Shown here in pieces: positions 36,696 to 60,829 of a DNA stretch of 64,000 nucleotides. The notes beneath the pieces were generated by a model that worked only from the letters and a program-made list of their open reading frames with translations, ran no database searches and was not told the DNA's origin. Numbering within the stretch: the stretch's first letter is position 1; the number at the start of each line of letters is the position of its first letter. The stretch lies in IMG/VR virus record IMGVR_UViG_3300025892_000008; one strand, written 5' to 3'. The position numbers were made by a program, and so were the translations under genes. Source of the stretch: a virus. Lineage: Duplodnaviria; Caudoviricetes.

Positions 36696-38052
36696 CAAAG
36701 ATAGGATAGAAAAATTTATACCTATCATGGACGAGATATCGCCTACCTTCTGCTTGGCTAAATGGCATCACACTACTATCTATTTAGGAACAGGAGAAAC
36801 ACATAGTTGTTATCATCCTGCTCCACATAAAATTCCGCTGGAAGGACTAGAAGAAAATCCTAGTCTATTGCATAATACCCCTCAAAAGAAAGCCGAAAGG
36901 CAGGCTATGATAAACGGAGAGAAACCTAGCGGTTGTAACTATTGTTGGAATGTTGAATGTATGGGTAAAGATTACATTAGTGATCGTAAAGAACGGAATG
37001 CAAGTATACATACACCAAAACGTTTTAATGATATTAAACAAAATCCAATGGCAGATGTTAATCCACAATATGTGGAAGTTAGTTTCGGTAATGAATGTAA
37101 TTTTAAATGCGGATATTGTCATCCTAAACATTCTAGCAGTTACTATAAAGAAATTGAAAAAGAAGGTCCATACACTATGGTTAAGAATCATAGGAATGAT
37201 ATTGACTGGTTTAAAATACACAAAGACGAAGAAACAAATCCATATGTTAAAGCATGGTGGAAGTGGTGGCCTGAATTGCGTAAGACACTTACAATTTTAC
37301 GTATTACAGGTGGTGAACCGTTACTACAGCAAAGCACATGGCGTATGTTCGACGAACTAGAAAAGAATCCATGCCCTGAATTAGAATTAAACATTAACAC
37401 TAACTTAGGTGTTAAGCCTATCCTTATTGAAAGATTTACTGACAAAGTAAACAGTTTAGTTGAAAAAGGCTGTATCAAAGACTTTAAAATTTTTACTAGT
37501 ATTGATACATGGGGACCACAAGCAGAGTATATCAGAACAGGCTTAGATTTAGAGCTGTGGGAAAAGAACTTAGACATGTACATGACTAGAACTAATATGC
37601 CTTTAACATTTATGGTTACATTTAATATTTTAACTGTAACTAACTTTAGTAAACTATTGCAAAAGTTTTTAGACTGGCGAATAAAGTATAATAGTGATAA
37701 TCAAACTAAATGGCAGCGTATTAGATTTGATACTCCGTATCTGAAAGAACCGTTGCAATATGATATGAATATACTTCCTAAAGATGCATTTGTTCCTTAT
37801 ATGAAACAGCACTTACAATTTATAGCAGAAAATTTAGATGATGCAGACAAACACAAATTTAGTATACTTGAATATGAGAAGTTTAGACGTGTAGTTGATT
37901 ACATGGCTTCTACAAATTATACTCCAGAGCGTGTACAAGAAGGTCGAAGAGATTTTCACAATTGGTTTACTGAATATGATCGAAGAAGAAATGTAAGTTT
38001 TGTAGAAACGTTTCCCGAACTAGAGGAATTTTATTTTGACTGTGCCCAGTAA
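36685..38052 (+). CDS. Radical SAM protein with N-terminal Cys-rich (twitch/SPASM-like) region
   Basis: CNFKCGYC (CxxxCxxC), ITGGEPLL, N-terminal FCLAKW...SCYH...GCNYCW. Confidence 0.85.
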   Translation: MMHDKDRIEKFIPIMDEISPTFCLAKWHHTTIYLGTGETHSCYHPAPHKIPLEGLEENPSLLHNTPQKKAERQAMINGEKPSGCNYCWNVECMGKDYISDRKERNASIHTPKRFNDIKQNPMADVNPQYVEVSFGNECNFKCGYCHPKHSSSYYKEIEKEGPYTMVKNHRNDIDWFKIHKDEETNPYVKAWWKWWPELRKTLTILRITGGEPLLQQSTWRMFDELEKNPCPELELNINTNLGVKPILIERFTDKVNSLVEKGCIKDFKIFTSIDTWGPQAEYIRTGLDLELWEKNLDMYMTRTNMPLTFMVTFNILTVTNFSKLLQKFLDWRIKYNSDNQTKWQRIRFDTPYLKEPLQYDMNILPKDAFVPYMKQHLQFIAENLDDADKHKFSILEYEKFRRVVDYMASTNYTPERVQEGRRDFHNWFTEYDRRRNVSFVETFPELEEFYFDCAQ

Positions 38053-39223
38053 AACATTTTGCATATTGCCTTGGATACATCTGTATGCCAATCCTGACGG
38101 CACTGTTCTACCTTGTTGTGTAGGAGACTGGCAGCAATCTATGGGTAATGTTCAGAACACAAAATTAGAAGATGTCTTTAATAATGAAAAGTTTAAGCAG
38201 ATGCGTAAGAACATGTTGGCTGGAAAAAAATGTAGCCAATGTACTGCATGTTACCGCGATGAAGATTCAGGTAACAGTAGTTTTCGTAAGCACAGCAACG
38301 AGCAGTTTGAAAAATATATTGATGATGCAGTTTTAAACACTAATGATGATGGCAGTATGGACGATTTTAGGTTGCGATATTTAGATGTTAGATGGAGTAA
38401 TATTTGCAATTTTAAATGTAGATCTTGCGGTCCTTTGTATTCAAGTAGTTGGGCGCAAGAACACGGTAGCGAAAAAATCTTTACCTATGCAGGCGGAGTT
38501 AGCAATGATGAACTATACAAACAGTTTGAACCTCACTTTGACACTATAGAAGAATTTTACTTTGCAGGCGGCGAGCCATTACTTACAGATAAGCATTACG
38601 AAATATTAGAATATCTAATTGATCACGATCGAACAGATGTAAAGTTAAGATACAACACAAACATGAGTGTGTTAAAATATAAAGGAAAGAGTGTTTTAGA
38701 CTTATGGAAAAAATTTAGTAACGTTATGATTGGAGCGAGCCTAGATCATTATGGATCTAAGGCTGAATATATACGGCACGGGACAGATTGGCCTTTAGTT
38801 GAAAGTAATTTAAAATTAATTCGGAAGGAAACTCCACATGTAGAATTGCATACAAACACGGTAGTATCTATTTTTAATATAAAGACTTTACCTAAGTTTA
38901 TTCAGTATATTATTGATAATGATTTAGTCAGTACAAAAAATTATAACCCTAATTTTTATAATATAATGAATCCAGACTATTATAGTTTTAAAATAATCCC
39001 AGAAGAGGACAAGGTAGATATCATAAAATCCTTGGAAGAGTTTGCTACACAGCACGGTGGAAACATCAAATATGGAATGCAGGGTGTTATAAATGGATTA
39101 CGAACATCGATGTATTCTCCCAAACTTAAAACAAAGTTATCGGTAGAAACAAAACATTACGATCATCTGCGCAAAGAAAGCGTAGAAGAAACTTTTCCTG
39201 AAATACAAGGATGGATTCAATGA
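38036..39223 (+). CDS. Radical SAM protein with N-terminal twitch/SPASM-like region
   Basis: CNFKCRSC, FAGGEPLL, N-terminal FCILPW...PCC...CSQCTAC. TTG start with a GAGG SD. Confidence 0.85.
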   Translation: MTVPSKTFCILPWIHLYANPDGTVLPCCVGDWQQSMGNVQNTKLEDVFNNEKFKQMRKNMLAGKKCSQCTACYRDEDSGNSSFRKHSNEQFEKYIDDAVLNTNDDGSMDDFRLRYLDVRWSNICNFKCRSCGPLYSSSWAQEHGSEKIFTYAGGVSNDELYKQFEPHFDTIEEFYFAGGEPLLTDKHYEILEYLIDHDRTDVKLRYNTNMSVLKYKGKSVLDLWKKFSNVMIGASLDHYGSKAEYIRHGTDWPLVESNLKLIRKETPHVELHTNTVVSIFNIKTLPKFIQYIIDNDLVSTKNYNPNFYNIMNPDYYSFKIIPEEDKVDIIKSLEEFATQHGGNIKYGMQGVINGLRTSMYSPKLKTKLSVETKHYDHLRKESVEETFPEIQGWIQ

Positions 39224-42478: not shown

Positions 42479-43663
42479 GTGAAGATAGGATTTATTGGAT
42501 TAGGTAAATTAGGATTGCCATGTGCAGAAGTAATTGCTAAAAAAGGACATAGTGTACTAGGTTATGATATTGATACAGTACATAGTGATTATGTAATTGT
42601 AGAAGATACTATACAAGATGCAGTAAAGGATAGAGATATTGTGTTTGTTGCTGTTCCTACACCACATGATCCTAATTATGATGGTAGAGCACCTACAGCA
42701 CATTTAGAACCAAAAGATTTTTCATACGATATTGTTCATAGTGTCCTTAAAGAAGCAAATAAGCATATGAATAAAGACCAATTGCTTGTGCTTATTAGCA
42801 CAGTATTGCCAGGTACAGTACGCAGAGAATTTATACAACACATTACTAATACACGGTTTGTTTACAATCCATACTTAATTGCAATGGGAACTGTTGCTTG
42901 GGATATGGTAAATCCGGATATAGTAATGATAGGAACACATGACGGAAGTGCTACAGGCGATGCTATCGAACTTGTAAGATTTTATCACACAATAATGGAA
43001 AACAATCCTAAGTATGAAATTGGAACTTGGGACGAATGTGAATGTATAAAAGTATTCTACAATACATTTATTTCAACTAAGATTGGATTAGTAAACATGA
43101 TGCAAGATGTTGCTGAGCGACAAGGTAATATAAATGTTGACAAAGTTACTGATGCATTATCTAACTCTACAAAAAGAATTACTAGTTCTGCATATATGAA
43201 AGCAGGAATGGGAGATGGCGGCGCATGCCATCCTAGAGATAATATAGCATTACGCTATATGGCTAAAAAATTAGATTTAGGTTATGATATCTTTGATGCA
43301 ATTATGAATGCTAGAGAAGTACAAGCACAAAATATTGCAACCAAACTCTGTGAAATTGCAAAAGAAAAAGAACTTCCTATTTTAATAAATGGTATTGCTT
43401 ATAAACCAGGTGTGCCTTATGTTGACGGAAGTTATGCATTACTAGTTTCACAATACTGTCACGAATACGGATTTAATCCAATGAAAATTGATCCATTAGT
43501 ATATGGACCTGACAAAGGACCTTATAGAGCAGTAGTTCTTCTTGCGCATCCAGAAATGTATATTGATGTTACTAATGATAGTGTTGTAGTTGATCCATGG
43601 AGAGAACATACTTCGGATACATACGAAGTTGTACATTACGGTAATACTAGAGAATCTTCTTAG
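42479..43663 (+). CDS. ugd: UDP-glucose/GDP-mannose 6-dehydrogenase family protein
   Basis: Rossmann GFIGLGKLGLP, FVAVPTP, ISTVLPGT, YNP, KVFYNTFISTKI, GMGDGGACHPRD (catalytic Cys), GIAYKP. Substrate specificity not determined. Confidence 0.85.
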   Translation: MKIGFIGLGKLGLPCAEVIAKKGHSVLGYDIDTVHSDYVIVEDTIQDAVKDRDIVFVAVPTPHDPNYDGRAPTAHLEPKDFSYDIVHSVLKEANKHMNKDQLLVLISTVLPGTVRREFIQHITNTRFVYNPYLIAMGTVAWDMVNPDIVMIGTHDGSATGDAIELVRFYHTIMENNPKYEIGTWDECECIKVFYNTFISTKIGLVNMMQDVAERQGNINVDKVTDALSNSTKRITSSAYMKAGMGDGGACHPRDNIALRYMAKKLDLGYDIFDAIMNAREVQAQNIATKLCEIAKEKELPILINGIAYKPGVPYVDGSYALLVSQYCHEYGFNPMKIDPLVYGPDKGPYRAVVLLAHPEMYIDVTNDSVVVDPWREHTSDTYEVVHYGNTRESS

Positions 43664-47973: not shown

Positions 47974-48885
47974 TTATGTTCCGATAGCATTACCAAACAA
48001 GTATACATGTACCCTTGCGGCTACATTATATCCACGTTCGAATGCCATCTTAGCAACTGCTCCGGCTGTTGCTGTTTGTTCTTCTTCTCTAGCACCTACA
48101 GGCATAACCCATACAGGATAATTTACACCTTGTGCCTTAAATTGTGAGATAGCATCTTCCATCTCATCCCACTGTTGTTGTTCGGAACCTACAACAAATT
48201 TTAATTGTCCTATAGACAACTTACTATACTGTGCAACTATCTCAGGCTTAATTGCTTTCTTTGCAGCCTCGCCTGCTACACTCCACAGTTTAGGACTTAC
48301 ACTAAAGAACAGTTCGATTTCGTTATCTGCTTCATAAGTCCAGTAATTAATAAATTCTTGTGTTAATGCTTGTGTACCATTAGTTTCAAATGTAACACTA
48401 GCAGGCATATTGCCCATACTCTTAAACTCACGCATGATACCAATGAATGCTTCTTGTCCGTGCTTCATCAACGGCTCACCACCTGTAACACAAAAGTGTT
48501 GTCTTTGTTGTGTAACAGGATGTAGAAACAAACCTTGTGGATTGCTATCTGTTTTAAGTGTATCAATAATTTGTTGTGCTAGTTCAACAGCAGTCTTTTG
48601 ACCCATTAAGTGTTTAAACTTTTTGCTCCATGTGTAACTACTATCACAGCCTTTGTCCCATACAGGCAAATCTTCTACACGTTTTACAGTTGAAGTATCA
48701 AATGTTTCAAACGGCAAATCATATGTATCAGGATTAGTAGGATCAATCTGACCAAATCCGTTACACTGTAAGTTGCATAAGAAAAACCGTATCCAAGCAG
48801 TAGGCACACCTGTATAGTGTCCTTCACCTTGAATACTGTGAAAGATTTCGCTGTAGTAATATTTCTTATCAGTTGCTATTGTCAT
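47974..48885 (-). CDS. queE: 7-carboxy-7-deazaguanine synthase QueE (radical SAM)
   Basis: SEIFHSIQGEG..TGVP..WIRF..CN..C...CDSSYTW, VTGGEPL, FETNGT, SVSPK, GQLKFVV, RVHVYLFG. Start moved to ATG 48885, downstream of the promoter. Confidence 0.9.
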   Translation of the reverse strand: MTIATDKKYYYSEIFHSIQGEGHYTGVPTAWIRFFLCNLQCNGFGQIDPTNPDTYDLPFETFDTSTVKRVEDLPVWDKGCDSSYTWSKKFKHLMGQKTAVELAQQIIDTLKTDSNPQGLFLHPVTQQRQHFCVTGGEPLMKHGQEAFIGIMREFKSMGNMPASVTFETNGTQALTQEFINYWTYEADNEIELFFSVSPKLWSVAGEAAKKAIKPEIVAQYSKLSIGQLKFVVGSEQQQWDEMEDAISQFKAQGVNYPVWVMPVGAREEEQTATAGAVAKMAFERGYNVAARVHVYLFGNAIGT

Positions 48886-49081
48886 TATGTTTATTATACG
48901 CTTTCTTATTGGATTTGTCAACCTCTTTAGTAAGTGAAAAGGAGCCATCGAAATTGTCTGTCCAAACTAAATCGTCTCCAATATCCCATCCCATTTGGTT
49001 TAGTAACTCAGTGGGAATAGGAAGAACCAAATCCTTCGATTTCGGATCTTCCTTTAATTTGATTTTTTGGGTACTAGTCAC
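48869..49081 (-). CDS. AbrB/MazE-like small DNA-binding protein
   Basis: DLVLPIPTELLNQMGWDIGDDLVW matches the swapped-hairpin pattern. GTG start at 49081 inferred from overlap with the upstream stop. Confidence 0.6.
   Translation of the reverse strand: MTSTQKIKLKEDPKSKDLVLPIPTELLNQMGWDIGDDLVWTDNFDGSFSLTKEVDKSNKKAYNKHNDNSN
48893..48921 (-). promoter_or_regulatory. Sigma70 consensus promoter for queE
   Basis: TTGACA (48921-48916), 17-nt spacer, TATAAT (48898-48893), then 7 nt to the ATG. Confidence 0.85.
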
Positions 49082-49283
49082 CAAAATGCTTGTCCAGCAT
49101 TTCGACTCTATCATGTGCAGTTGCCATTTTATCTAACTCTTTTTGGATAGTTTCGATAATATCGCTATGCTCACCAATTCCTACAACCTGTTGCATGTAT
49201 ACTTCAATATTGGCTTTATGCAGATCAATTTCTGCCTCAGCATGCTTCCTTGCTGCATTGATTAATGTTTGTTTCAATGTCAT
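49074..49283 (-). CDS. Hypothetical protein
   Basis: 69-aa helical ORF with an AAGGA SD. Confidence 0.7.
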   Translation of the reverse strand: MTLKQTLINAARKHAEAEIDLHKANIEVYMQQVVGIGEHSDIIETIQKELDKMATAHDRVEMLDKHFGD

Positions 49284-49663
49284 AACCTTTCCTTATAGTT
49301 TTGTTTTGATGGAATTACGCCGCGAACGCCGCCTCTAGGATTCTCCGTATCGCCATCACGACGGAAAATTAAGTGAACATGTGGATAAAGACAAGTTTGT
49401 CCGGCACTCTTGCCCATATTGATACCCACATTGTAACCTGTAATATTGTTATTCTCTGACTTAATGTTGTCATTACCCATAGTAAGAGCAAAATTAAAAC
49501 ACTTTAAAATGTTTTCTTCTGTATTTTGTCTAGGTACAACAAGTGTATGCCCTTCTGTAACAGGATAGATATCGTTATACACAACAAATTCACGTGTATC
49601 AATCTCGACTTGTTTCCAAGGAGCTCTACCATCTTGTTGTGCTATTTCTAAAGTGTCTGTCAT
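49280..49663 (-). CDS. HIT-family nucleotide hydrolase
   Basis: DIYPVTEGHTLVVPR, YNVGINMGKSAGQT, YPHVHLI (first His of the triad replaced by Tyr). Confidence 0.85.
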   Translation of the reverse strand: MTDTLEIAQQDGRAPWKQVEIDTREFVVYNDIYPVTEGHTLVVPRQNTEENILKCFNFALTMGNDNIKSENNNITGYNVGINMGKSAGQTCLYPHVHLIFRRDGDTENPRGGVRGVIPSKQNYKERL

Positions 49664-50128: not shown

Positions 50129-50358
50129 TAAAATCCTCTACCTTTGTTAATTTGAAATATTCTAGGACCAGGTGTTGTAAATTCAAACCCCATCTTATTA
50201 CCAACATAAACTCTACCGTTATATTCCATATGTATTTTATTTGTTGCTAGAAAGATATCTAGAAACTCTTTTTCTTTAAATCTATCAACTTCTGCCTCTG
50301 CTACTTTGTCATTATCTGTGCAAGTAACTGTGCATACATTATCATGTCCTGTTGGCAT
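50128..50358 (-). CDS. Hypothetical protein
   Basis: ATG 50358 coupled to the PRTase stop. Confidence 0.65.
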   Translation of the reverse strand: MPTGHDNVCTVTCTDNDKVAEAEVDRFKEKEFLDIFLATNKIHMEYNGRVYVGNKMGFEFTTPGPRIFQINKGRGF

Positions 50359-50915
50359 TAATACTCTCCTACATTTTCCCAAGGATAAACTAACCAAACA
50401 TCTTCCTCAGATTTATTAACTTCATCACAATAGTAATTAACTAAACCAAATTCGCTTGATAAGTTTTCTGTTAATACTGCAAAGCGAACATTATCTCCCC
50501 ATGCTTGATCCCATATAGGCGATTGAGGTAAACAACTGGATTTCCAATCATCTCTAATCCAGTTAAATGTTGCACCAGTATCATTTATATCATCTACAAT
50601 AAGAATGTTTTTGCAATTAGTATCGTGTTTAAACTGCCCCATCTCAGGAGCATAGTCTCCACTATCATCGTAACCATATGCATCTTCGGCCATCCAACAG
50701 TTGCTTTCACTTTCACTAGTATCATCACGTAGACTTACTTTAATCGCTTCGCAACGTATGCCAGTCATGTTACTAATAATAGTAGCAGGAACATTACCAC
50801 CACGTGTAATACCTACAATGTAATCAGGCTTCCAGTTGTCAGCATACATTTTGTTTACAATATTAACGCACATTTTTTCTACGTCAGCCCAACTATAATA
50901 TTTCTTTTTAATCAT
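50358..50915 (-). CDS. Purine phosphoribosyltransferase (Gpt/Hpt-like)
   Basis: IVGITRGG..PA and the PRPP-binding loop ILIVDDINDTGAT; C-terminal WLVYPWE. Confidence 0.85.
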   Translation of the reverse strand: MIKKKYYSWADVEKMCVNIVNKMYADNWKPDYIVGITRGGNVPATIISNMTGIRCEAIKVSLRDDTSESESNCWMAEDAYGYDDSGDYAPEMGQFKHDTNCKNILIVDDINDTGATFNWIRDDWKSSCLPQSPIWDQAWGDNVRFAVLTENLSSEFGLVNYYCDEVNKSEEDVWLVYPWENVGEY

Positions 50916-51387
50916 TGCGTCCTTCCAAATATTTTTCATTATGTACCCAACGGTATCCTAATGTTTTTACAAAAGGTAAAAAGCCCCATTCCTTTTGTTT
51001 CTTGCCCATATAGAACAAACTCCAACAAGGAATCTCTTTACCGTCTTTATCTTCCTTAAGTTTTAGGTAATGCAGATCATCTGATGATCTAAACCTAAAA
51101 TGCCCAGGCCCACGCCATCTTGCTGTGGCTCCTACTACGTTACCTTCTTGACTATAACAAGGAATGTATTCATAGTATCCGCCTTTTAAAATAAGTGTTG
51201 CATACGACCACGGATGATCGTGTAGTACTGACTCATCACTTACCATAACTTTGTGTAGTGTTATGTTAAAAGGAAAGTTCTTTCGTTCCTTTAAAAACAA
51301 ATAATAACGATCAAGATAAGGTATTTTACCATCTCTATCGTATATAGTTCTTTTTCTACCTAACTTATCAAGCAGTTTCAACAACAT
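50908..51387 (-). CDS. Cupin-like hypothetical protein
   Basis: LHDHPWSYATLILKGGYYE ... DLHYL metal-binding cupin-type pattern. Confidence 0.55.
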   Translation of the reverse strand: MLLKLLDKLGRKRTIYDRDGKIPYLDRYYLFLKERKNFPFNITLHKVMVSDESVLHDHPWSYATLILKGGYYEYIPCYSQEGNVVGATARWRGPGHFRFRSSDDLHYLKLKEDKDGKEIPCWSLFYMGKKQKEWGFLPFVKTLGYRWVHNEKYLEGRND

Positions 51388-51775
51388 CAAAAACCTCTTC
51401 CTTTAAATAACGTTTTAACTCACCGTCAATGGGTTGTACGTTATAGTTATCTTTGAAAAATATCTCATAACTATCAGAGCCATATTTTCCAATTCCGTAT
51501 AACATTGTAGCATCATTTCCGTCCCAAGTCAAGTAATCTTTTGACATTCTACGTAGCCGGTGTTCACGTACATTAACCATTCCTAATGGTTTAATAATCA
51601 TTTTAATTGTATCTGGCGCAGTATTAATCAAATGTACTGGTGTAGGACAAATACCAAATAACAAAGGTAATACTCTTTTTACTTGTTTACGGTTTGTTTG
51701 ATTAAGACAGATAACACCTACCATGTGTTGCCAAGAGCCATCAATTTGCTGTTGCACCATAAGTTCGTCTTTCAT
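51368..51775 (-). CDS. HhH-GPD DNA glycosylase, MBD4-like
   Basis: WQHMVGVICLNQT, LGMVNVR..RL..MS..YL, LYGIGKYGSDSYEIF. Confidence 0.75.
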   Translation of the reverse strand: MKDELMVQQQIDGSWQHMVGVICLNQTNRKQVKRVLPLLFGICPTPVHLINTAPDTIKMIIKPLGMVNVREHRLRRMSKDYLTWDGNDATMLYGIGKYGSDSYEIFFKDNYNVQPIDGELKRYLKEEVFDVVETA

Positions 51776-51981
51776 CCTAGTGTGACCCAATTACTATGTT
51801 TCGGCTTGAACAAAGAATAAACCTGTTTTACTCTTTTGTTATATTCTTCTTCATTCACCGAAATATTATTTAGGTGTTGTCTCCAAATTCTTTTCATATC
51901 GTCTGAAAGTTTTGGGTTTGCTAGAATTAATTTTAAACTTGCTCTACGCTGAGACTGTTTGATTTCCGAATAAGGTCCCAT
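51772..51981 (-). CDS. Hypothetical protein
   Basis: 69-aa ORF whose stop overlaps the next start. Confidence 0.55.
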   Translation of the reverse strand: MGPYSEIKQSQRRASLKLILANPKLSDDMKRIWRQHLNNISVNEEEYNKRVKQVYSLFKPKHSNWVTLG

Positions 51982-52617: not shown

Positions 52618-53307
52618 TTATTGATTACAAGCATATGATTGTTGAAGTTTAATGTTATCCATAAACTCTTTCTTAGTAGCCGCATCGTCTTTGAATGCAC
52701 CTTTAAGAACAGTTGTTTGTGTAAGACTACTGTGTGCCTTAACACCCCTATTCTCAACACAACCGTGTGTTGCTTGTATATACACACCTAAGTGTTCTGC
52801 ACCTGTTGCTTTTTGTATTTCACGGGTAATATCATTTGCAAGTTCTTCTTGCAATGTACCACGTTCAGCACACCATTGTGCAATACGTGTATACTTAGAC
52901 AAGCCAATTAGTTTGTCTGCGGCAATTATACCAATGTATGCTACGCCTCTTACAATCTGATGATGATGTGAACACATACTTGTTAGTTCTGAACGTACTA
53001 CTAGCATACCTTCATAACGTGAAGCACTGTCATTTGGAAATGCTGTTGCACTAGGAATAGGATCATAACGTCCTGCCATTAGTTCATTGATATACATCTT
53101 TGCAAGACGTTTACCAGTTCCCATACTGTTAGGGTCATTATGCCTGTCAATTACAAGTGCATCTAGTACACCTTCAAACTTCTCGGCGGCTTCGTTGATA
53201 AGTTGTTCTTTTTCGCCTTCAAAAATAAAGTCACTGATATTGTCACCTGCCCAATATCTATTTTCTGTATCTTGTAAGCGTTTTGCTATTTCTTCGTATT
53301 TCTTCAA
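52618..53307 (-). CDS. folE: GTP cyclohydrolase I
   Basis: TGKRLAKMY, SMCSHHH, IGLSKYTRIAQW, LQEEL, ATHGCVENRGV. TTG start with a GGAG SD. Confidence 0.92.
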   Translation of the reverse strand: MKKYEEIAKRLQDTENRYWAGDNISDFIFEGEKEQLINEAAEKFEGVLDALVIDRHNDPNSMGTGKRLAKMYINELMAGRYDPIPSATAFPNDSASRYEGMLVVRSELTSMCSHHHQIVRGVAYIGIIAADKLIGLSKYTRIAQWCAERGTLQEELANDITREIQKATGAEHLGVYIQATHGCVENRGVKAHSSLTQTTVLKGAFKDDAATKKEFMDNIKLQQSYACNQ

Positions 53308-53346: not shown

Positions 53347-54387
53347 TTAATGTAACACGTCTAGTAAACCTTTGCAACTAAAATAATCTCCATTCAGTTT
53401 GTTTACTTGTTTATTTAGGTCTGGAAGATAGTTTTTATAATTTTCCATGTATTCTGTAATAAGATTCATTACTTTGGGTTTGTTCTTTTTATATGAATCT
53501 AATGAATCTGTCCATTCACTTGGATATTTAAACTTAGGTAATGCCATTTCAGAATAACTTAACCTATCTGGAACCATTGGAATTGCACCAACAATTGCAC
53601 CTTCATACCAACTTATACCTAGTGTTTCTTGTAAGTTGGCACTAAACACAATTTTTGCTTCTCCTAGTAAGTTGTGATATTCGTTCTTTGAAAGATCTCG
53701 TTCTTGACAAACCACAAAGTTATATTGTGGTAATGCTTCTTTCAAGTCTTGGAATATTGATAGTTGTTTTTCAGGAGCAATCCTGTGTGGGAATAATATA
53801 GTATCCTTTTTAGGCATTCCTTTATACATTGTAAGTGTATCTTCCATGTATTCAAAAGGCCAACCTGTTCTTACTATTTTTTGTTTATCTAAATCAGGAA
53901 AGGCTTTAAAGAACATAAGAATATGGAATTCACTTGCAAAGAAATTATGATCAAAACATTCATACATACTTCTTTCAGCATTTCTTACCCAAGGCTTATC
54001 GCCAATTATCCTACCAAGAAAATCAGCAGGATCGTAACTGCCAGCATGCCATAACCCACCAATTCTGATCTTAACATTAAGTAGCTCAGCCATGTATTTA
54101 AGTTGTATAACAGACGGGTTCCAAGCATCTGTATATAGGAAATAATCCCCATCCTTTACTTCTCCTTTGCAAAATGCATCAGCAATCTGCATCAATTGAT
54201 TTGATTTGTAAACATTAGTCCCACCAAAGTTGAGGAACGCACCAGGTGTTGTTGCCTGTGGCGTATCCCCTCCATTGACTACTCGCACTTTATGGCCGTG
54301 AGCTTCTAGCAGTTTAGGAAACTTTGTTTTCCACTGTTTAGTGTATCGTGTTTCTACTGCTTCAAGATCAACTAGCCAAATATTCAT
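53347..54387 (-). CDS. GT-B glycosyltransferase (GT4-like) inside the deazaguanine cluster
   Basis: LFPHRIAPEK, EX7E motif ETLGISWYE, GAIPMVPDRLSYSE. Confidence 0.75.
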   Translation of the reverse strand: MNIWLVDLEAVETRYTKQWKTKFPKLLEAHGHKVRVVNGGDTPQATTPGAFLNFGGTNVYKSNQLMQIADAFCKGEVKDGDYFLYTDAWNPSVIQLKYMAELLNVKIRIGGLWHAGSYDPADFLGRIIGDKPWVRNAERSMYECFDHNFFASEFHILMFFKAFPDLDKQKIVRTGWPFEYMEDTLTMYKGMPKKDTILFPHRIAPEKQLSIFQDLKEALPQYNFVVCQERDLSKNEYHNLLGEAKIVFSANLQETLGISWYEGAIVGAIPMVPDRLSYSEMALPKFKYPSEWTDSLDSYKKNKPKVMNLITEYMENYKNYLPDLNKQVNKLNGDYFSCKGLLDVLH

Positions 54388-54590
54388 CTGCGCTTACTCC
54401 TTTTATCTTTAAATTTCCGATTACCTTTACTAAATGCTCTCCATACATAACTAGAGTTATTATAGAGATCCTTTTCATGAAAAGGATAAAAGTTACCACG
54501 GTTGTCACTGTTAAAGCGACAAAAATTTTTGAATTGTTCAAGATCGTTAAAAACCTTATCGTAGGCTCTACGATTGAATTGAATCGCCAT
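54384..54590 (-). CDS. Hypothetical protein
   Basis: 68 aa with a GAGG SD; basic C-terminus. Confidence 0.65.
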   Translation of the reverse strand: MAIQFNRRAYDKVFNDLEQFKNFCRFNSDNRGNFYPFHEKDLYNNSSYVWRAFSKGNRKFKDKRSKRR

Positions 54591-54602
54591 TTTAATAATC
54601 CT

Positions 54603-55043
54603 CTATCTAGCATACTCAATGTGGGCACCGTTTTCTCCATCTTCACTTACGTCAATATGGACTTCACGGCCTGGGTGTTTAGCAATAATTTGTTCATATA
54701 AATCATCACTCATCATTTCACAACTTTTATAATCTAATTCAATTGTCTTCTCCTCATACAGTTTCTCAAGCCAACGCTTGAATTGGATGAATTCAATATC
54801 TCTGTCGTTGTGTGTAACAGTGATACCTACCTTAAAATGAAATATGTGTCTATGGGGATAACCCAAAAAACTAACATCATATTCATCTCCTGTTGCAAGA
54901 CTAGGATCATCTAGTGCCGCAGGATACTTATGGATACCTTCTTTAGTAAAGGTTACCCAAATCATTCGTTTTGCTGTAGACATAATGCGTCTATGATTGT
55001 CTTCTGCTGTTGCTTCTTTTATCATTGTTTCCATTGTACTCAT
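54603..55043 (-). CDS. QueD-like T-fold protein with LxxxHRHxF motif (DpdL-like candidate)
   Basis: FLGYPHRHIFHF, HNDRDIEFIQFK, KSCEMMSDDL, VSEDGENGA. Lacks the CxxxHGH motif of canonical QueD. True start may be 55034 or 55025. Confidence 0.75.
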   Translation of the reverse strand: MSTMETMIKEATAEDNHRRIMSTAKRMIWVTFTKEGIHKYPAALDDPSLATGDEYDVSFLGYPHRHIFHFKVGITVTHNDRDIEFIQFKRWLEKLYEEKTIELDYKSCEMMSDDLYEQIIAKHPGREVHIDVSEDGENGAHIEYAR

Positions 55044-55072
55044 AGTATACTACCTTTTTGTTCTGTTGTCAA
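55044..55072 (-). promoter_or_regulatory. Sigma70 promoter for the QueD-like/GT/folE unit
   Basis: TTGACA (55072-55067), 17-nt spacer, TATACT (55049-55044). Confidence 0.8.
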
Positions 55073-55073
55073 G

Positions 55074-55577
55074 TTAGTCTTTAATATCATCATCGCCATA
55101 TTTGCTCCAATCCGTAAACTTATTGCGTTGTAATAGTGGATGAATATTGTGTACCCATACACCCGGATTAGAATGATCAAAGTCTGCATCATCAATCTTA
55201 ATACAAGCATTGTAGTTAAGTTGATTTACGTATGGCAGTTTAACACTAATCATACTAATAAAGTTATGATTCTCATTAAACCCACTTTCAAGTATCCATT
55301 CATGATACTTTACATCATAGTCTAATGTAACTAAAAATTTCTTATTAAGTAGGCCTTGTACAAGATCTTCCCAACTTTCTTTTGGAACAAAACTGTGATT
55401 AGCACCTAAGTAAATATGGTCAACTGTGTGTTCTTTTGCTTTTGCAAGAACATCTTCTAATGGTTGACATCCTGTTACAAACAGTGTATGCATTTCATAA
55501 GCAGGAGTTTTCTCTACTTCATATCCTGTAAAGTAAGTAACATCTTCTTTTACACCATCTGCATATTCTCGTTTCAT
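55074..55577 (-). CDS. Hypothetical protein between the dpdA-like and queD-like genes
   Basis: 167 aa; ATGA overlap with the upstream ORF. Confidence 0.75.
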   Translation of the reverse strand: MKREYADGVKEDVTYFTGYEVEKTPAYEMHTLFVTGCQPLEDVLAKAKEHTVDHIYLGANHSFVPKESWEDLVQGLLNKKFLVTLDYDVKYHEWILESGFNENHNFISMISVKLPYVNQLNYNACIKIDDADFDHSNPGVWVHNIHPLLQRNKFTDWSKYGDDDIKD

Positions 55578-55753
55578 TCAGCGTTTACCTTTTCTAACCT
55601 ATCAATTTGGTCTTTCATTTTTAATCGACTACGTTTCATTTCAGATATTTCTTCATCTGCAAACCTACCGGTTTTTTCCATAGTATCAATTTTTTTATTT
55701 AGGAAATTGTGTGTTTCTTTTAAAACTTTTAGTCTCTGAGTGTAGTCACCCAT
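55574..55753 (-). CDS. Small coiled-coil protein, DUF465/YdcH-like (59 aa, absent from the ORF track)
   Basis: MGDYTQRLKVLKETHNFLNKKIDTMEKTGRFADEEISEMKRSRLKMKDQIDRLEKVNAE; LxxxHxxLxxxI...KxxRLxxKDxI pattern. Confidence 0.7.
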   Translation of the reverse strand: MGDYTQRLKVLKETHNFLNKKIDTMEKTGRFADEEISEMKRSRLKMKDQIDRLEKVNAE

Positions 55754-55754
55754 T

Positions 55755-57302
55755 TTACGCCTCCTGTAGTTGTTGCTCTAGTTTATCTAGTTCACCATCT
55801 TCTCTATCATCTGCCCAAGGTGTTTTTTCTTCACCTTCTTCGTCTACTTCTACAAACATTCTGTTAAACTCATTGGTAACACCACCACGTAGTCTTGCAC
55901 CTTCTAAGTTTTTAAGGAAACTGTCACCTTCTTTAATCATAGCAAACGCTGCTTCTTTAGTAGGCTGTTCGAACAGTTCTTCGACAAATTTATCAAAGTA
56001 TAAAATGTTACGCGGCACCCAATCAGAATATTCATCACTCTTATCTGCTTCTTTTACTTTTCTCCAACTTCTCCAGTCTGGACGATCCTTTGCCAATTCA
56101 ATATCTGTTAAGTTGTTAGCACGTTGTACCGCAACAATATGTTGATAAACGTTATGTGCCATCATTAGTGCATAACCAAAACTATCCCAAGATGTTTTAC
56201 CTTCTTTACCAATCTTGTTTAACATACCTGGAGCATAATGACAAATGTCAGCAATGCTTAGTCGTCTACCAATTTCACTTTCGAAAGGAAAAGGAATATC
56301 GTGCCTCTTGGCAAGTGCTTTGTTATCAGGAGCCTTGTCCATTATAACTGACCATCTCTTACTTGTATGCTGGCTGTTAGTGTACACTAGTCCGTGTGCT
56401 GTAGCAATAAAAGGACTTGCACAATCAAAACTAACTGTAAAGTTCTCATTAATGTGTTTTCTAACCTGTCGTTGAATTGAAGTAAGATAACATGACCAAT
56501 CAAGTTGTGCAGTACCTAAGAAGTGCATCCAGTCCTTGCCTTCTAGCATACCATCAAATTTCATAGTCATTATACGTCTTAGTGTAATAGGCATTTTGCA
56601 CATATTAGCGCCACCCATTGCCCAGCCTTCACAAGCCTTGTCTTTCCATATAGCAGGATCGGAGAATTCTTTAACACCTTCGTACCACCTTTCAGCAGTA
56701 TCCCAGTCTGAACCCTGTAATACATTTAAGAACTTAGTTGCACCAAGTCTGCGCTCTAACCAATATTTGTTATTAAATCTTGTTTTTTCTAAACAATCTT
56801 CAAAACTCTTTAGTCCTGTTTTAGGCGAATGAATATGATCACATGCCCAAGTAGGAACGTCAAGTAGCATACTCCAGTCTGCTGTAAGTTCGAGCCAATT
56901 AAGAATATCTTCTCTAACCTTATTAGCAGCAGGACCTTCAAAGTTTAGCCAATCAAATTTAAGAACACCTTTACCAACTTGATAACCACCTGAGTCACCA
57001 AGTATCATAGTGTTGCCACGATCACGTGTTTGCACCATACTGTCTTGATCCATTGTTTTATCAAGATTTAATTGTGCGTGTCCTGCGGAATACAATCCAT
57101 ATTTGTATGTAAAGTATCCTTCTTCTTCATTTAAAAAGTTCATACCTTCGATGCCGCGATCAAAGCCTTGCGGAATACGGTCAGTTGGAACGAACTCTTG
57201 CTTACGTTGTTTAGCAATATAAGTGCTGAAGAAAGAACTAATAGCAGGCAAATACACTGCGTAGTCTTTCTGTAATGGTGTTAAGTTGACTGGTTTTTTC
57301 AT
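55755..57302 (-). CDS. dpdA: TGT-superfamily guanine transglycosylase, DpdA-like (probably DNA-acting)
   Basis: TGT active-site motifs in order: DSGGYQ, MLLDVP, NVLQG, WAMGG, HFLG, SFDC. No CxCxxC zinc site of tRNA TGT. Context of folE, queE and a queD-like gene, next to clamp and polymerase. Confidence 0.75.
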   Translation of the reverse strand: MKKPVNLTPLQKDYAVYLPAISSFFSTYIAKQRKQEFVPTDRIPQGFDRGIEGMNFLNEEEGYFTYKYGLYSAGHAQLNLDKTMDQDSMVQTRDRGNTMILGDSGGYQVGKGVLKFDWLNFEGPAANKVREDILNWLELTADWSMLLDVPTWACDHIHSPKTGLKSFEDCLEKTRFNNKYWLERRLGATKFLNVLQGSDWDTAERWYEGVKEFSDPAIWKDKACEGWAMGGANMCKMPITLRRIMTMKFDGMLEGKDWMHFLGTAQLDWSCYLTSIQRQVRKHINENFTVSFDCASPFIATAHGLVYTNSQHTSKRWSVIMDKAPDNKALAKRHDIPFPFESEIGRRLSIADICHYAPGMLNKIGKEGKTSWDSFGYALMMAHNVYQHIVAVQRANNLTDIELAKDRPDWRSWRKVKEADKSDEYSDWVPRNILYFDKFVEELFEQPTKEAAFAMIKEGDSFLKNLEGARLRGGVTNEFNRMFVEVDEEGEEKTPWADDREDGELDKLEQQLQEA

Positions 57303-57307
57303 AATGT

Positions 57308-57313
57308 TATTTA
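57308..57313 (-). promoter_or_regulatory. TAAATA promoter core, 5 nt before the dpdA-like ATG
   Basis: TAAATA-ACATT-ATG overlapping the clamp stop codon; no SD. Confidence 0.55.
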
Positions 57314-58048
57314 GGCCGCCTGTGCTGGAATGATATATTTGTAATTTGCTAATCCACTATCTAGTGTAATTTGAATAGCACCTTCGTTTGAAATACTCAT
57401 CTTAGTATTATTAACATCAGCAATTTTAAGGATAGCAAGAATACTAGCCACTGGCCAAGTCCAACCTTTATCTAATGTACCTTCAACATTTTGTGCGAAT
57501 ACAAATTCACCACCATGTGTACTTGCATCACCAAAGATAAACTTCAAGTTATTATCTTCAGTTTTTGCTAAGAACGTTGGATGTTCAGGATTAGCGCCTG
57601 CTTGGAAACTAAACCTTTGTACTGCTGGCAAAGTTGGAGTTACCTCAACATTCCAGTTAACACCACGAAACTTAACAGTTTTCATTTTTTCGTTAATAAT
57701 TTCTTGATTCATAAAACGATAGTCGTTTTTAAAATCACCATCAGCATTTTCAAAATGAATACCTACTGGAATAGTAGCACCATTTCTTTCAGCATTTGTA
57801 ATAGTAATTTTTGCATCCTTTTGATATTCAGTACCATCAATTAAGTATTTCAACTTATTAAGTTGAGGCATACCAAATGTACCAATCATATCTGGATACG
57901 GGTTATGTGTGTCTGCTTCCATAATAACTGATCTGTCATCAGCCATTGAAAACATTCCTGTCTTATCTTCTTCGCCAGATACCTTAACAGTTGTTAGGAA
58001 ACCTAAGTTCTGTGTGTGGCTGACGATATCTTGTAAAATGTCTTTCAT
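57311..58048 (-). CDS. DNA sliding clamp (gp45/PCNA-like)
   Basis: 245 aa, two-domain size, ends AIQITLDSGLANYKYIIPA as PCNA-fold clamps do; adjacent to PolB. Confidence 0.7.
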   Translation of the reverse strand: MKDILQDIVSHTQNLGFLTTVKVSGEEDKTGMFSMADDRSVIMEADTHNPYPDMIGTFGMPQLNKLKYLIDGTEYQKDAKITITNAERNGATIPVGIHFENADGDFKNDYRFMNQEIINEKMKTVKFRGVNWNVEVTPTLPAVQRFSFQAGANPEHPTFLAKTEDNNLKFIFGDASTHGGEFVFAQNVEGTLDKGWTWPVASILAILKIADVNNTKMSISNEGAIQITLDSGLANYKYIIPAQAA

Positions 58049-58106: not shown

Positions 58107-60770
58107 TTACTCAAAATCAAATAAACTGTTAAAGTTATTATCATTACGTGTTTGACTTATGTCCCATTCCAAAACGCCAATTAAGTTTTTAAGTTTTTCA
58201 TCGATAACTGTGTTTTCCATAGTAGCATCATCGAATGGTAACTCTTTGAACCAATCCGGAAGTCTTAGTTCGTCAACCGGATATGCTACACTGGTGTAAG
58301 CCATTGGATTATCTTTAACCTTACATACAATAACTTTTGCACCATCTGTTATGTTTACTGAGTACTTGTCGCCGTTCATACGTTTAAGTGTATTCCAATT
58401 GATACTTGCTCTTACGTGTCCAGGCATATTCACCTTACCTGCTTTCTTTTCCTTTGCTCCATACTCTGTAATCTTATTTGCACGCTTAGGAGAACCTTTC
58501 TCCCAACCTGGACGTGACTTAAACTCTGTTCTAAATTCAGTAATGTAGTCTAGTACATCTTCTTTGTCTTTACCTGCTAGTACCATTTCTAATACATTAC
58601 TCAAAAAGTCTTGAATAACAACAGGAGTATCAGAACGTTTCAAGTCTAAGCCCATTGCTTTAATCTTGCCTGCCTTGCCTTCTGTATCTGTTCTAAATCC
58701 TTCAATGTCATAGTATAACACTGCATAACGTTTCTTTGTAATAAACAGACCTTTACTTGCAACAATCTCTCTAGCAGCCGCAATAACTTCGGAACGTTTT
58801 TTAGGACAATGAAATGCTTGGCTCATAAACTTAGGAAATGTTGCATTAGCATTTTCGCCGATTGTATCATATAGTTCTATAACGCTGTCTTTTGTCCACG
58901 GAATACTACCTGCTTCAATATCTTTTTTCAGTGTGCTATACGCACTGAAGTATGTAGAGTCAGTGTCACCATAAACAATTGCTTTGCCTGTATGATCATA
59001 TTCGCCTGTTACTATCTCATTGATCTTAGCAGCCATATGTTTTGTGATACTTCTTCCTGTAAGTGTAACACTTTGACCGATCCTATTATCGAAAAACCTA
59101 CAACCAGGATTAAGAATAGCGCCATACAAACTGTTAAGTAGAATTTTCTTAACCAACTGTCGCTTTGCCCAGTATTCTTCTTCAATTTTGTTTCCTGCAT
59201 TTTGACTTTCTTTCTGTTTAGCCTGCATTTCTTTACGTTCTTTGTACCAACGTGCAAGTAGTCCAGGAATAATACCTTCTTTTTCGTATGTAAAGATTGT
59301 ACCATTAGCACTTAGCATCCAAGGTTGATTGCTTTCGTAGATTAAATCATATATCTGTGCGGCACTAAGTTTGTCATTGTCGCCATTTTCCCAGTCGACA
59401 GTAATCTCTCTGCTAATCTCTTTGTCCATTACAGAACTATATTCAACACTACCAAACATACCTTCCCATGCACTTGCAAATGATTTGCCCTTTGCCATCT
59501 GTCCATCGATATGTGCTTTTGTTCCTTCTTGACGTAGTTGTCCGACTACAGTCTCAGGACCCATATTCAATGCTCTAATAACAGACGGATACAGTGAATT
59601 CAAGTCAACACTGCCAATCCATTCATGAATACCTTTTTTAGGATAAGCAACATAAGCACCTGCCGCAGGCTCACTGCCTGGCTCACGTTTTACTCTGTTC
59701 GGAACAATCATTCCACGTCTGTGTGCTTCGTTGATAATACCTTGTTCTGTAACTGCAACAGCACCCATTGTTGTTTGTATAAGAACTGTGTTTTCATGTG
59801 CAATAGTATTTGCAAGATCGATAAACTTTAGTTTCTTGTCTAGTTTGTCAAGTAGTGCAGTATCTTGTCTATTGTATTCGATGAATGTTCTAAAGTCGTT
59901 GTTGTATAGTGCATCAAGACTACCTTCATAAACAGTTTTCTTTTCACCTACTTCTAGTTCACCAATAGCATCTAGTCTGTATGTATGGCGTTCTTCATAG
60001 TTGTACTTACGATATAGTTCTAAACTATCTACGTGTACACGACCAATTAGATCATATGTTTGTGATTCCTTACCAAACTTTTCATATATTCTTTTCTTAG
60101 GCTTTTGATCCCACAAGCACAAGCGTCTAGTATCATCTGCGCTTAATACTTTAATGATACGGTTAACAGTGTAAGGCATATCATAACCTTCACTGTTCCA
60201 ACCACTTAGTACATCAGCATCTTGAATAAGATCTAAAAAAGCATCAAGCATATCTGCTTCATTGTCATACAGTATTGTATTTGGAATACCTTCAATTGCT
60301 TTTTGTGCTTCTGCCATTGAAAGTGTCTTAGGAGGAATAGCCAAACAAATAAGTTCATCTAGCCACTGTAAATGCACAGCAATTGATGTAATAGGCATAA
60401 ACGCATCTTCTGGACTTGCGTACCCACGCTCAGGATCAAAGTCAACCTCGATATCCCAAAACGCTACATTTAGTTTAGGAGCATCAACGTTTAAATAGTT
60501 GTCTTCTAAACAGCGATAAATTGGATTTATATCGCTTTCATATAATTTATGATTAGAATGAATTGCAAGTTCCTTGCGCAATTCCTTAATGTTTTTTGCA
60601 GTTACACGCTGTAAAGGATCACCGTAAATAGATTGATGTTTGCCTCTTGGGTCTTTATAATAAAATACGTGTCTTGGGGAATATTCTGTAAAATGTCTTT
60701 TATTGTTTTTTCTTTCTACTACTCGAATAGTATCTTCACTTCGATCATAGAATGCATCTACGTAACTCAT
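58107..60770 (-). CDS. Family B DNA polymerase with 3'-5' exonuclease (gp43-like)
   Basis: ExoI WDIEVD, ExoII GWNSEGYDMPY, ExoIII YNRQD, motif A DLNSLYPS, motif B KILLNSLYG, motif C YGDTDS. C-terminal clamp-type motif NSLFDF. ATG 60770 follows an AGGAG SD. Confidence 0.95.
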   Translation of the reverse strand: MSYVDAFYDRSEDTIRVVERKNNKRHFTEYSPRHVFYYKDPRGKHQSIYGDPLQRVTAKNIKELRKELAIHSNHKLYESDINPIYRCLEDNYLNVDAPKLNVAFWDIEVDFDPERGYASPEDAFMPITSIAVHLQWLDELICLAIPPKTLSMAEAQKAIEGIPNTILYDNEADMLDAFLDLIQDADVLSGWNSEGYDMPYTVNRIIKVLSADDTRRLCLWDQKPKKRIYEKFGKESQTYDLIGRVHVDSLELYRKYNYEERHTYRLDAIGELEVGEKKTVYEGSLDALYNNDFRTFIEYNRQDTALLDKLDKKLKFIDLANTIAHENTVLIQTTMGAVAVTEQGIINEAHRRGMIVPNRVKREPGSEPAAGAYVAYPKKGIHEWIGSVDLNSLYPSVIRALNMGPETVVGQLRQEGTKAHIDGQMAKGKSFASAWEGMFGSVEYSSVMDKEISREITVDWENGDNDKLSAAQIYDLIYESNQPWMLSANGTIFTYEKEGIIPGLLARWYKERKEMQAKQKESQNAGNKIEEEYWAKRQLVKKILLNSLYGAILNPGCRFFDNRIGQSVTLTGRSITKHMAAKINEIVTGEYDHTGKAIVYGDTDSTYFSAYSTLKKDIEAGSIPWTKDSVIELYDTIGENANATFPKFMSQAFHCPKKRSEVIAAAREIVASKGLFITKKRYAVLYYDIEGFRTDTEGKAGKIKAMGLDLKRSDTPVVIQDFLSNVLEMVLAGKDKEDVLDYITEFRTEFKSRPGWEKGSPKRANKITEYGAKEKKAGKVNMPGHVRASINWNTLKRMNGDKYSVNITDGAKVIVCKVKDNPMAYTSVAYPVDELRLPDWFKELPFDDATMENTVIDEKLKNLIGVLEWDISQTRNDNNFNSLFDFE

Positions 60771-60775
60771 TTTTT

Positions 60776-60829
60776 CTCCTATATGCAATTTCAGGCTTGC
60801 AAATACCAATGTGTCGCTTAATGGCCGAC
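60776..60829 (-). promoter_or_regulatory. Structured 5' leader of the polymerase gene (candidate translational operator)
   Basis: Hairpin UGCAA-GCCUGAAA-UUGCA (60784-60801) just before the SD; second hairpin GUCG...CGAC (60813-60829). Confidence 0.5.

Follow-up and report, generated by a model that had tools for sequence, protein, structure and literature searches.

The DNA considered here is a 64,000-nucleotide stretch of a viral genome, that of a marine jumbo phage (IMG/VR record IMGVR_UViG_3300025892_000008, Caudoviricetes; the whole stretch is hereafter the window), in which a gene for a GT-B, GT4-like glycosyltransferase (GT; protein P0001) lies among genes of 7-deazaguanine metabolism. 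Gene content in the window and its relatives suggests that this GT is a built-in component of a phage module for 7-deazaguanine modification of DNA, and the recurring pairing of GT and deazaguanine genes in unrelated phages points to an undescribed, sugar-carrying modified G. The genes form a tightly packed, co-oriented block on the (-) strand in the order PolB-clamp-DpdA-P3-DpdL-GT-FolE...PRTase-HIT-QueE, with the following features:

58107-60809, (-) strand: family B DNA polymerase (PolB), by Pfam and PHROG scans
57311-58048, (-) strand: sliding-clamp-like protein (phrog_12062), with homologs in phages PAC2 and Phosso annotated PCNA or sliding clamp
55755-57302, (-) strand: DpdA-like DNA-guanine transglycosylase P0004, 515 amino acids (aa), with the TGT-type motif LGDSGGYQ
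55574-55753, (-) strand: open reading frame (ORF) of 59 aa
55074-55577, (-) strand: P3 (P0003), a conserved cluster protein of 167 aa, 36% identical to its ACP17 counterpart
55044-55072, (-) strand: sigma-70-like promoter consensus TTGACA-17-TATACT, 11/12 positions (a consensus match only)
54603-55043, (-) strand: DpdL-family T-fold protein P0002, motif LGYPHRHIF (phrog_17812)
54384-54590, (-) strand: ORF of 68 aa with a basic C-terminus
53347-54387, (-) strand: GT-B, GT4-like glycosyltransferase P0001, 346 aa, ATG start, with R202, K207 and E254-x7-E262 conserved
52618-53307, (-) strand: GTP cyclohydrolase I, FolE (PF01227, 4e-37)
51368-51790, (-) strand: small HhH-GPD superfamily protein of 140 aa, EndoIII-like
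50908-51390, (-) strand: protein matching phrog_4786 ('cysteine dioxygenase'), a putative oxygenase
50358-50939, (-) strand: purine phosphoribosyltransferase (PRTase), XPRT/HGPRT-like, by Pfam, PHROG and NCBIfam
49280-49663, (-) strand: HIT-family nucleotide hydrolase/transferase
47974-48948, (-) strand: QueE-like radical SAM 7-carboxy-7-deazaguanine synthase (a 303-aa form according to gene callers)

As an earlier note on this DNA had it, the GT gene sits between a QueD-like gene and folE. Its start codon overlaps the stop of the 68-aa ORF (ATGA) and is preceded, 9 nt upstream, by the Shine-Dalgarno sequence AAAGGAG; a small ORF occupies the same position as the 68-aa ORF in two metagenomic relatives (L034 and L030). 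The promoter-like site to which the note had assigned this transcription unit is directly upstream of the QueD-like gene, although such sites are no more frequent in the region than in shuffled sequence. The first ATG of that gene is immediately next to the -10 element, and the true start of the gene may therefore be a downstream Met. At the other end of the block, a full sigma-70 consensus (TTGACA-17-TATAAT, 12/12) lies at 48921-48893 on the (-) strand, within the long QueE ORF near its 5' end. Given this consensus site, and given that gene callers on identical contigs use the 303-aa form, the true QueE start is probably downstream; queE may have its own promoter.

The ORF of P0001 is exact, and its earlier description as a GT4-like protein with an EX7E motif is borne out by fold and conservation. 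With P0001 as the query, Pfam (at E<=0.01), PHROG and NCBIfam scans gave no match and phmmer found nothing among PDB sequences. We aligned 50 representatives of the family (27-51% identical), on which the residue conservation and the AlphaFold2 (AF2) model are based, and 33 of these homologs match PF00534 (Glycos_transf_1; best 5.7e-9). The model (pLDDT 96.2, pTM 0.92) is a two-Rossmann GT-B structure with an inter-domain cleft. Foldseek returned 476 PDB matches at E<=1e-3, all of them GT-B and led by retaining GT4/GT5 enzymes, namely P. abyssi glycogen synthase (2e-11), BshA, MshA, GlgM and PimA, and a fold search of Swiss-Prot models agrees with this picture. Close matches in the viral structure library BFVD were limited to the ACP17 relative (TM-score 0.90) and one other viral protein (TM-score 0.85).

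Among the 50 representatives, the second glutamate of the EX7E motif (E262) is invariant, as are Q64, G116 and E138, and the first (E254) is at least 90% conserved, together with R202, K207 and a set of aromatic and charged residues in the N-domain. The conserved set of this N-terminal acceptor domain comprises E9, R14, Y15, W19, K61, Q64, D87, W89, H114, G116 and E138. A profile search aligns the EX7E motif with its counterpart in PDB 8xsg, and R202 and K207 may be counterparts of the Arg and Lys of PimA and MshA that bind the nucleoside diphosphate (NDP) portion of the donor at its diphosphate. By its modelled fold and conserved residues the GT looks catalytically competent, and P0001 is probably a retaining, nucleotide-sugar-dependent GT4-like GT-B enzyme.

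The upstream neighbour that the earlier note called QueD-like does encode a T-fold protein, but is more precisely placed in the DpdL family. DpdL is the predicted decarboxylase of 7-carboxy-7-deazaguanine (CDG) on the route to 2'-deoxy-7-deazaguanosine (dDG); it has an LxxxHRHxF signature in place of CxxxHGH and is without the catalytic Cys of PTPS/QueD enzymes (PMC10516641). The LGYPHRHIF of P0002 fits that signature, and P0002 is 34% identical (5e-11) to the DpdL locus of Cellulophaga phage phiST. P0004 gave no Pfam match; it is 41% identical to a PAC2 protein, its Atlas clusters are TGT/DpdA-like (0.94 and 0.89), and it aligns at 24% over 275 aa (E 1e-5) with the likely DpdA of ACP17, whose gene is immediately upstream of the GT there. 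The annotated cluster region of the window (~44-64 kb) has no gene that we could recognise as a canonical QueD, and in PA5oct and ACP17 QueD is encoded elsewhere or nearby. QueC was not found in PAC2, ACP17, BCSR5 or a complete 197-kb relative (G003), and X1 gave a sub-threshold match only.

P3 is conserved with the cluster (1901 clusters). Its AF2 model (pLDDT 77) has a confident alpha/beta core; a Foldseek search of PDB gave no match at E<=1e-3, and its Atlas features were uninformative. With VIA-align, a STAS-like fold scored best (Z 8.1) and QueE scored Z 6.7, both inside the stated noise range, so that neither a fold nor a function is assigned to P3.

Linkage of the GT to deazaguanine genes recurs in cultured phages. 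A tblastn search of 50,697 phage genomes with the GT gave 22 records, among them Sinorhizobium phage Phosso (47.5% identity), eleven PA5oct-like Pseudomonas jumbo phages (47%), Acidovorax phage ACP17 (38%), Burkholderia phage BCSR5 and Xanthomonas phages X1 and BUDD (25-26%), and five PhiXhv/Ep0xx records (23%). Phosso, PAC2, ACP17, X1 and BCSR5 all have QueE and a homolog of DpdL (40-71% identical) together with the GT; FolE is near the GT in all of these except PAC2, where it is encoded elsewhere in the genome. The GT directly abuts a large candidate DpdA gene in PAC2, ACP17, X1, BCSR5 and the metagenomic locus L042, and abuts DpdL in Phosso. The candidate DpdA of X1 is annotated queuine tRNA-ribosyltransferase; those of PAC2, ACP17 and BCSR5 are hypothetical proteins whose similarity to P0004 is weak or undetectable. 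Gene order differs in each of these five phages, the most compact cluster being that of ACP17 (QueD-FolE-P3-DpdA-GT-DpdL-QueE).

DpdL occurs in 17 of the 22 GT-bearing records and in 28 of 50,697 overall (Fisher p = 2e-54, for records that are not independent and represent ~5 lineages), and QueE homologs occur in just 188 of the 50,697. Every GT-bearing lineage examined carries deazaguanine genes, which covers all 22 records. The earlier note had pointed to conservation of the GT-folE-queD-like-dpdA linkage in relatives as a check on its proposal, and to homologs standing apart from deazaguanine genes as evidence against it; what we find is a linkage that is conserved, and no examined lineage that stands apart.

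Metagenomic loci extend the pattern. Once 22 marine IMG/VR relatives, L034, L036 and three further clades with 15 loci between them (GT 27-37% identical) are counted in, 41 of 46 loci, from at least nine divergent lineages (the marine clade, Phosso, PA5oct-like phages, ACP17, X1/BUDD, BCSR5 and three IMG/VR clades), have a DpdL homolog close to the GT. In the distant clade of L042 the PRTase gene is directly upstream of the GT. Four of the five exceptions are loci with an incomplete flank, and the one full-length exception is phage PhiXhv-15.

The GT of PhiXhv-15, some 115 kb away from the replication genes, is flanked by a PIG-L family deacetylase, a Gfo/Idh/MocA oxidoreductase and a gene (L009:5816-7339; PV764602.1 107369-108892) deposited as an 'L-glutamine-D-fructose-6-phosphate aminotransferase'. 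We rejected this gene as GlmS-type evidence for an amino sugar: it is a Gat-QueC fusion, with a QueC domain (5.5e-51) containing an SGGMDS loop and an Ntn-amidotransferase N-terminus (MCSIFG). FolE and a QueE homolog lie elsewhere in the genome, next to the polymerase; the QueE homolog (31% identity, 5e-32) is the protein labelled 'GTP 3',8-cyclase'. From the fusion and the QueE homolog together, the PhiXhv group appears to have an unrecognised deazaguanine pathway. Thus the common denominator of GT-bearing phages is, as far as their gene content indicates, 7-deazaguanine rather than DpdL specifically. By analogy with known transferase-deacetylase pairs, the PIG-L gene suggests transfer of N-acetylglucosamine (GlcNAc) followed by deacetylation in that lineage.

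The GT system is abundant in the ocean and is also found in the therapeutic-candidate phage PA5oct. The GT family comprises >8000 clusters at 90% identity, and 1238 representatives of 50%-identity clusters match the GT at E<=1e-3 (283 at E<=1e-30). The exact GT protein is on 48 contigs, the longest of 266,598 bp, and the locus is found in sequencing runs of 12 marine studies, two metatranscriptome assemblies among them. Megablast found no phage genome that matches the locus.

We put at roughly 60% the probability that the GT serves a Dpd-type system as its tailoring enzyme, placing a sugar on 7-deazaguanine; around that core we infer the acceptor atom, which sugar is used, in what order the steps occur and what the phage gains. 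According to the pathway we propose, GTP would be converted to CDG by FolE, QueE and a QueD encoded elsewhere, and the DpdL-type T-fold protein would process CDG, by predicted decarboxylation, to 7-deazaguanine. DpdA would then swap guanine in replicated DNA for the deazapurine, and the PRTase would most simply recycle the guanine so released. The GT would use an NDP-sugar to glycosylate the deazaguanine moiety, acting on DNA once the base is in place, as phage T4 does with 5-hydroxymethylcytosine, or else on the free base before DpdA inserts it. The resulting sugar-bearing 7-deaza-G would shield the genome from restriction and other DNA-targeting defences.

A more specific version falls somewhat short of an even chance: that these phages would be the first known to have a glycosylated purine analogue in their DNA, 7-deazaguanine with a sugar put there by a dedicated GT4-like family that co-evolved with DpdA and DpdL. 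We are equally tentative that the sugar is a hexose, an N-acetylhexosamine or hexosamine, or a deoxy-sugar, depending on lineage. Since the minimal ACP17 cluster is without a recognisable oxygenase, the linkage may be unusual, that is, an N- or C-glycoside or an ester.

Several observations weigh against a sugar on the DNA base. The DNA of phiST carries 100% plain dDG, made with DpdL (PMC10516641), and tblastn at E<=1e-3 detected no GT in that phage; additionally, 11 of the 28 DpdL-bearing phage records are without a GT. Thus the GT is an add-on and not a requirement. 7-Deazaguanine, the predicted DpdL product, has no hydroxyl, and no recognisable oxygenase is encoded in the compact ACP17 cluster, so that the only acceptors available would be N2, a ring carbon, the CDG carboxylate and an unrecognised product of DpdL. 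The GT is near neutral (isoelectric point (pI) 6.5), 0 of 150 representatives are fused to DpdA, DpdL or a DNA-binding domain (the longer members carry insertions only), and the GT bears no special likeness to T4 DNA glucosyltransferases, so that none of these features points to DNA binding. T4 alpha- and beta-glucosyltransferases show no specific sequence or fold relation to the GT and are absent from the best 50 of its 476 PDB matches. Synteny within the early replication module could also partly reflect shared regulation.

In favour of a sugar product, relatives carry sugar-related genes within the cluster. In L028, a cytidylyltransferase-like nucleotidyltransferase, a phosphomannomutase and an NDP-sugar epimerase/dehydratase lie between polB and the clamp gene, and a 2-oxoglutarate (2OG)-Fe(II) oxygenase (8760-9305) is directly upstream of DpdL-GT; it is possible that this locus is a hydroxylate-then-glycosylate variant with its own sugar donor. 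In L030, Gfo/Idh/MocA and MDR dehydrogenases lie between DpdA and P3, and a gene of the IMP dehydrogenase/GMP-reductase family (12854-13936; PF00478, 1e-68) lies between the PRTase and HIT genes. The combination of PRTase and GMP reductase recalls the nucleotide chemistry of toyocamycin and tubercidin, and by that analogy some relatives may also make deazapurine nucleotides. The ThyA family (PF00303) is absent from the GT-bearing genomes of ACP17, X1 and BCSR5, and therefore a hydroxymethyl-pyrimidine acceptor is not apparent there. Candidate acceptors are the exocyclic N2, by analogy with huimycin; the CDG carboxylate; the pyrrole carbon, which is electron-rich and would yield a C-glycoside; a hydroxyl installed by a lineage-specific oxygenase, such as the 2OG enzyme of L028 or the phrog_4786-matching protein of the window; and a DpdL product that has gone unrecognised.

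Three other explanations of the locus were weighed. It is unlikely that the GT acts on a small molecule of the pathway that stays free and is never incorporated into DNA, be it a tetrahydropterin intermediate or a huimycin-like deazapurine metabolite. A cyanobacterial tetrahydrobiopterin glucosyltransferase is known to act on a tetrahydropterin, and the structure of such an enzyme (PsBGluT, 9v0l) is among the fold matches of the GT (E 9e-8; TM-score normalised to the query (TMq) 0.54); however, it ranks 38th, below BshA and MshA (TMq 0.68). FolE and a PTPS/QueD-like T-fold gene do flank the GT, but the DpdL type is without the catalytic Cys of PTPS/QueD, the conserved partners reach beyond this pair to DpdA and QueE, and the GT abuts the candidate DpdA in PAC2, ACP17, X1, BCSR5 and L042. 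A neutral protein without a DNA-binding add-on would suit a free substrate, and in huimycin biosynthesis HuiG transfers the sugar of UDP-GlcNAc onto a free 7-deazapurine (bioRxiv 10.64898/2026.04.15.718813), a precedent for a glycosyltransferase acting on a 7-deazapurine. Against this, a pterin glycoside offers no apparent benefit to a lytic phage, and no gene of the sepiapterin-reductase type was seen in the cluster.

Similarly improbable is a GT that modifies an unrelated target (for example a different base of DNA, a protein of the virion or the host, or an envelope glycan) and that is co-located with the deazaguanine genes only through the early replication module. GT4 enzymes are highly diverse in acceptor, many phages have glycosyltransferases for other purposes, and the Foldseek matches are generic GT4 enzymes only. 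However, adjacency to deazaguanine genes outlasts extensive rearrangement of gene order in at least nine lineages with GT identities of 23-50%, and these genes are present in every GT-bearing lineage examined. The GT of PhiXhv-15 is remote from the replication genes yet stands beside Gat-QueC, and ACP17, X1 and BCSR5 are without the ThyA-type hydroxymethylase that a hydroxymethyl-pyrimidine acceptor would need.

We doubt most of all that the sugar is transient, with a glycosyl intermediate such as a CDG glycosyl ester aiding DpdL or DpdA on the way to plain dDG or its 7-carboxy counterpart (dCDG): the tight DpdL-GT coupling in most lineages, the CDG carboxylate as the sole obvious nucleophile needing no oxygenase and the failure of ACP17 dpdL and dpdA alone to give dDG in Escherichia coli would fit, but phiST reaches 100% dDG with no GT, some lineages have PIG-L and sugar-tailoring oxidoreductases next to the GT, which suggests a sugar that persists and is processed further, and we know of no GT4 enzyme that acts as a transient activator.

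A sugar-bearing 7-deazaguanine, if correct, would be a new class of DNA hypermodification. To our knowledge, none of the eight known 7-deazaguanine modifications of DNA carries a sugar, and all known sugar-bearing DNA bases are pyrimidines. Full-text literature searches returned no paper joining a glycosyltransferase to DpdA-type DNA modification and none with a glycosylated deazaguanine in DNA, in agreement with the earlier statement that this combination of genes has no characterised product. The DNA of PA5oct resists restriction enzymes with G in their sites and is predicted to hold a modified G of unknown identity (PMC12191111), and ACP17 dpdL and dpdA expressed in E. coli formed no dDG (PMC10516641); a glycosylated base would account for both. 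It would also bear on evasion of restriction, CRISPR and END nucleases by therapy-candidate phages, and the GT could supply a new enzyme for labelling 7-deaza-dG DNA. Six cultured phage groups have the gene (PA5oct-like, ACP17, X1/BUDD, BCSR5, Phosso and PhiXhv), which makes the hypothesis directly testable.

Other features of the window deserve brief mention. The END nucleases directed against hypermodified DNA of the PA5oct type sense it through an inactivated EndoIII domain (PMC12191111), for which reason the small EndoIII-like protein at 51368-51790 may be of interest. Of the main glycan cluster that the earlier note placed about 10 kb from the GT, we recognised one clear sugar-nucleotide gene, a UDP-glucose/GDP-mannose dehydrogenase at 42479-43663; ORFs at 30-40 kb gave no glycan Pfam match. 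A neighbouring pair of radical-SAM genes (36685-39223, (+) strand), one of them with a SPASM domain, is found there among ORFs without Pfam matches. In the structural, (+)-strand half of the window, a giant ORF of 4978 aa (6026-20962, (+) strand) is flanked by ORFs of 1171 and 713 aa, the latter with a phage tail collar domain; its product is probably a giant tail-fibre or virion protein.

By gene content, the GT-bearing cluster appears to be a variant of known phage deazaguanine systems, and its proposed sugar-bearing product is undescribed in the literature searched. It shares with the phage Dpd systems typified by phiST a DpdA-like transglycosylase with DSGG, FolE, QueE, a DpdL-type T-fold protein with LxxxHRHxF, the lack of QueC (in relatives) and a location next to the polymerase. 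Unlike phiST, clusters of the window type conserve the GT4-like enzyme; P3 is extra in the window, its marine relatives and ACP17, and the window and marine relatives add a PRTase (weakly in PAC2; also in L042) and a HIT protein. The DNA product of such clusters is predicted to be heavier than dDG.

Three enzyme systems outside phage deazaguanine modification offer partial likenesses. BshA and MshA, the retaining GT4 UDP-GlcNAc transferases of bacillithiol and mycothiol synthesis, resemble the GT in fold (TMq up to 0.68) and in the R/K/EX7E signature, and the GT followed by PIG-L in PhiXhv-15 mirrors the BshA-BshB and MshA-MshB pairs. They differ in being only 10-14% identical to the GT, whose N-domain has its own conserved set and whose context is DNA modification, not thiol synthesis. 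HuiG, like the proposed GT activity, acts on a 7-deazapurine, adding GlcNAc to a free base made by FolE, QueD, QueE and QueC, but it belongs to an actinomycete secondary-metabolite cluster without DpdA. In tRNA, queuosine is glycosylated to mannosyl- or galactosyl-queuosine by QTMAN/GTDC1 and QTGAL, likewise glycosyltransferases that decorate a 7-deazaguanine derivative already in nucleic acid. There the acceptor is a cyclopentenediol hydroxyl, whereas no queuosine side chain could be made by the phage cluster; a suspected likeness of the GT to QTMAN/GTDC1 was set aside, GTDC1 being absent from the best 30 Swiss-Prot fold matches.

A parallel in purpose is that of phage T4, whose alpha- and beta-glucosyltransferases act on 5-hydroxymethylcytosine in DNA; base J is likewise glucosylated. 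A cyanophage 'DNA alpha-GT' appears in the BFVD fold search of the GT at rank 50 only (E 7e-6). The proposed logic is nonetheless the same, a GT-B enzyme placing a sugar on a non-canonical base to protect DNA. What would set the present system apart from T4 is that its acceptor is a purine analogue, reached with no hydroxymethylase (PF00303 is absent from ACP17, X1 and BCSR5).

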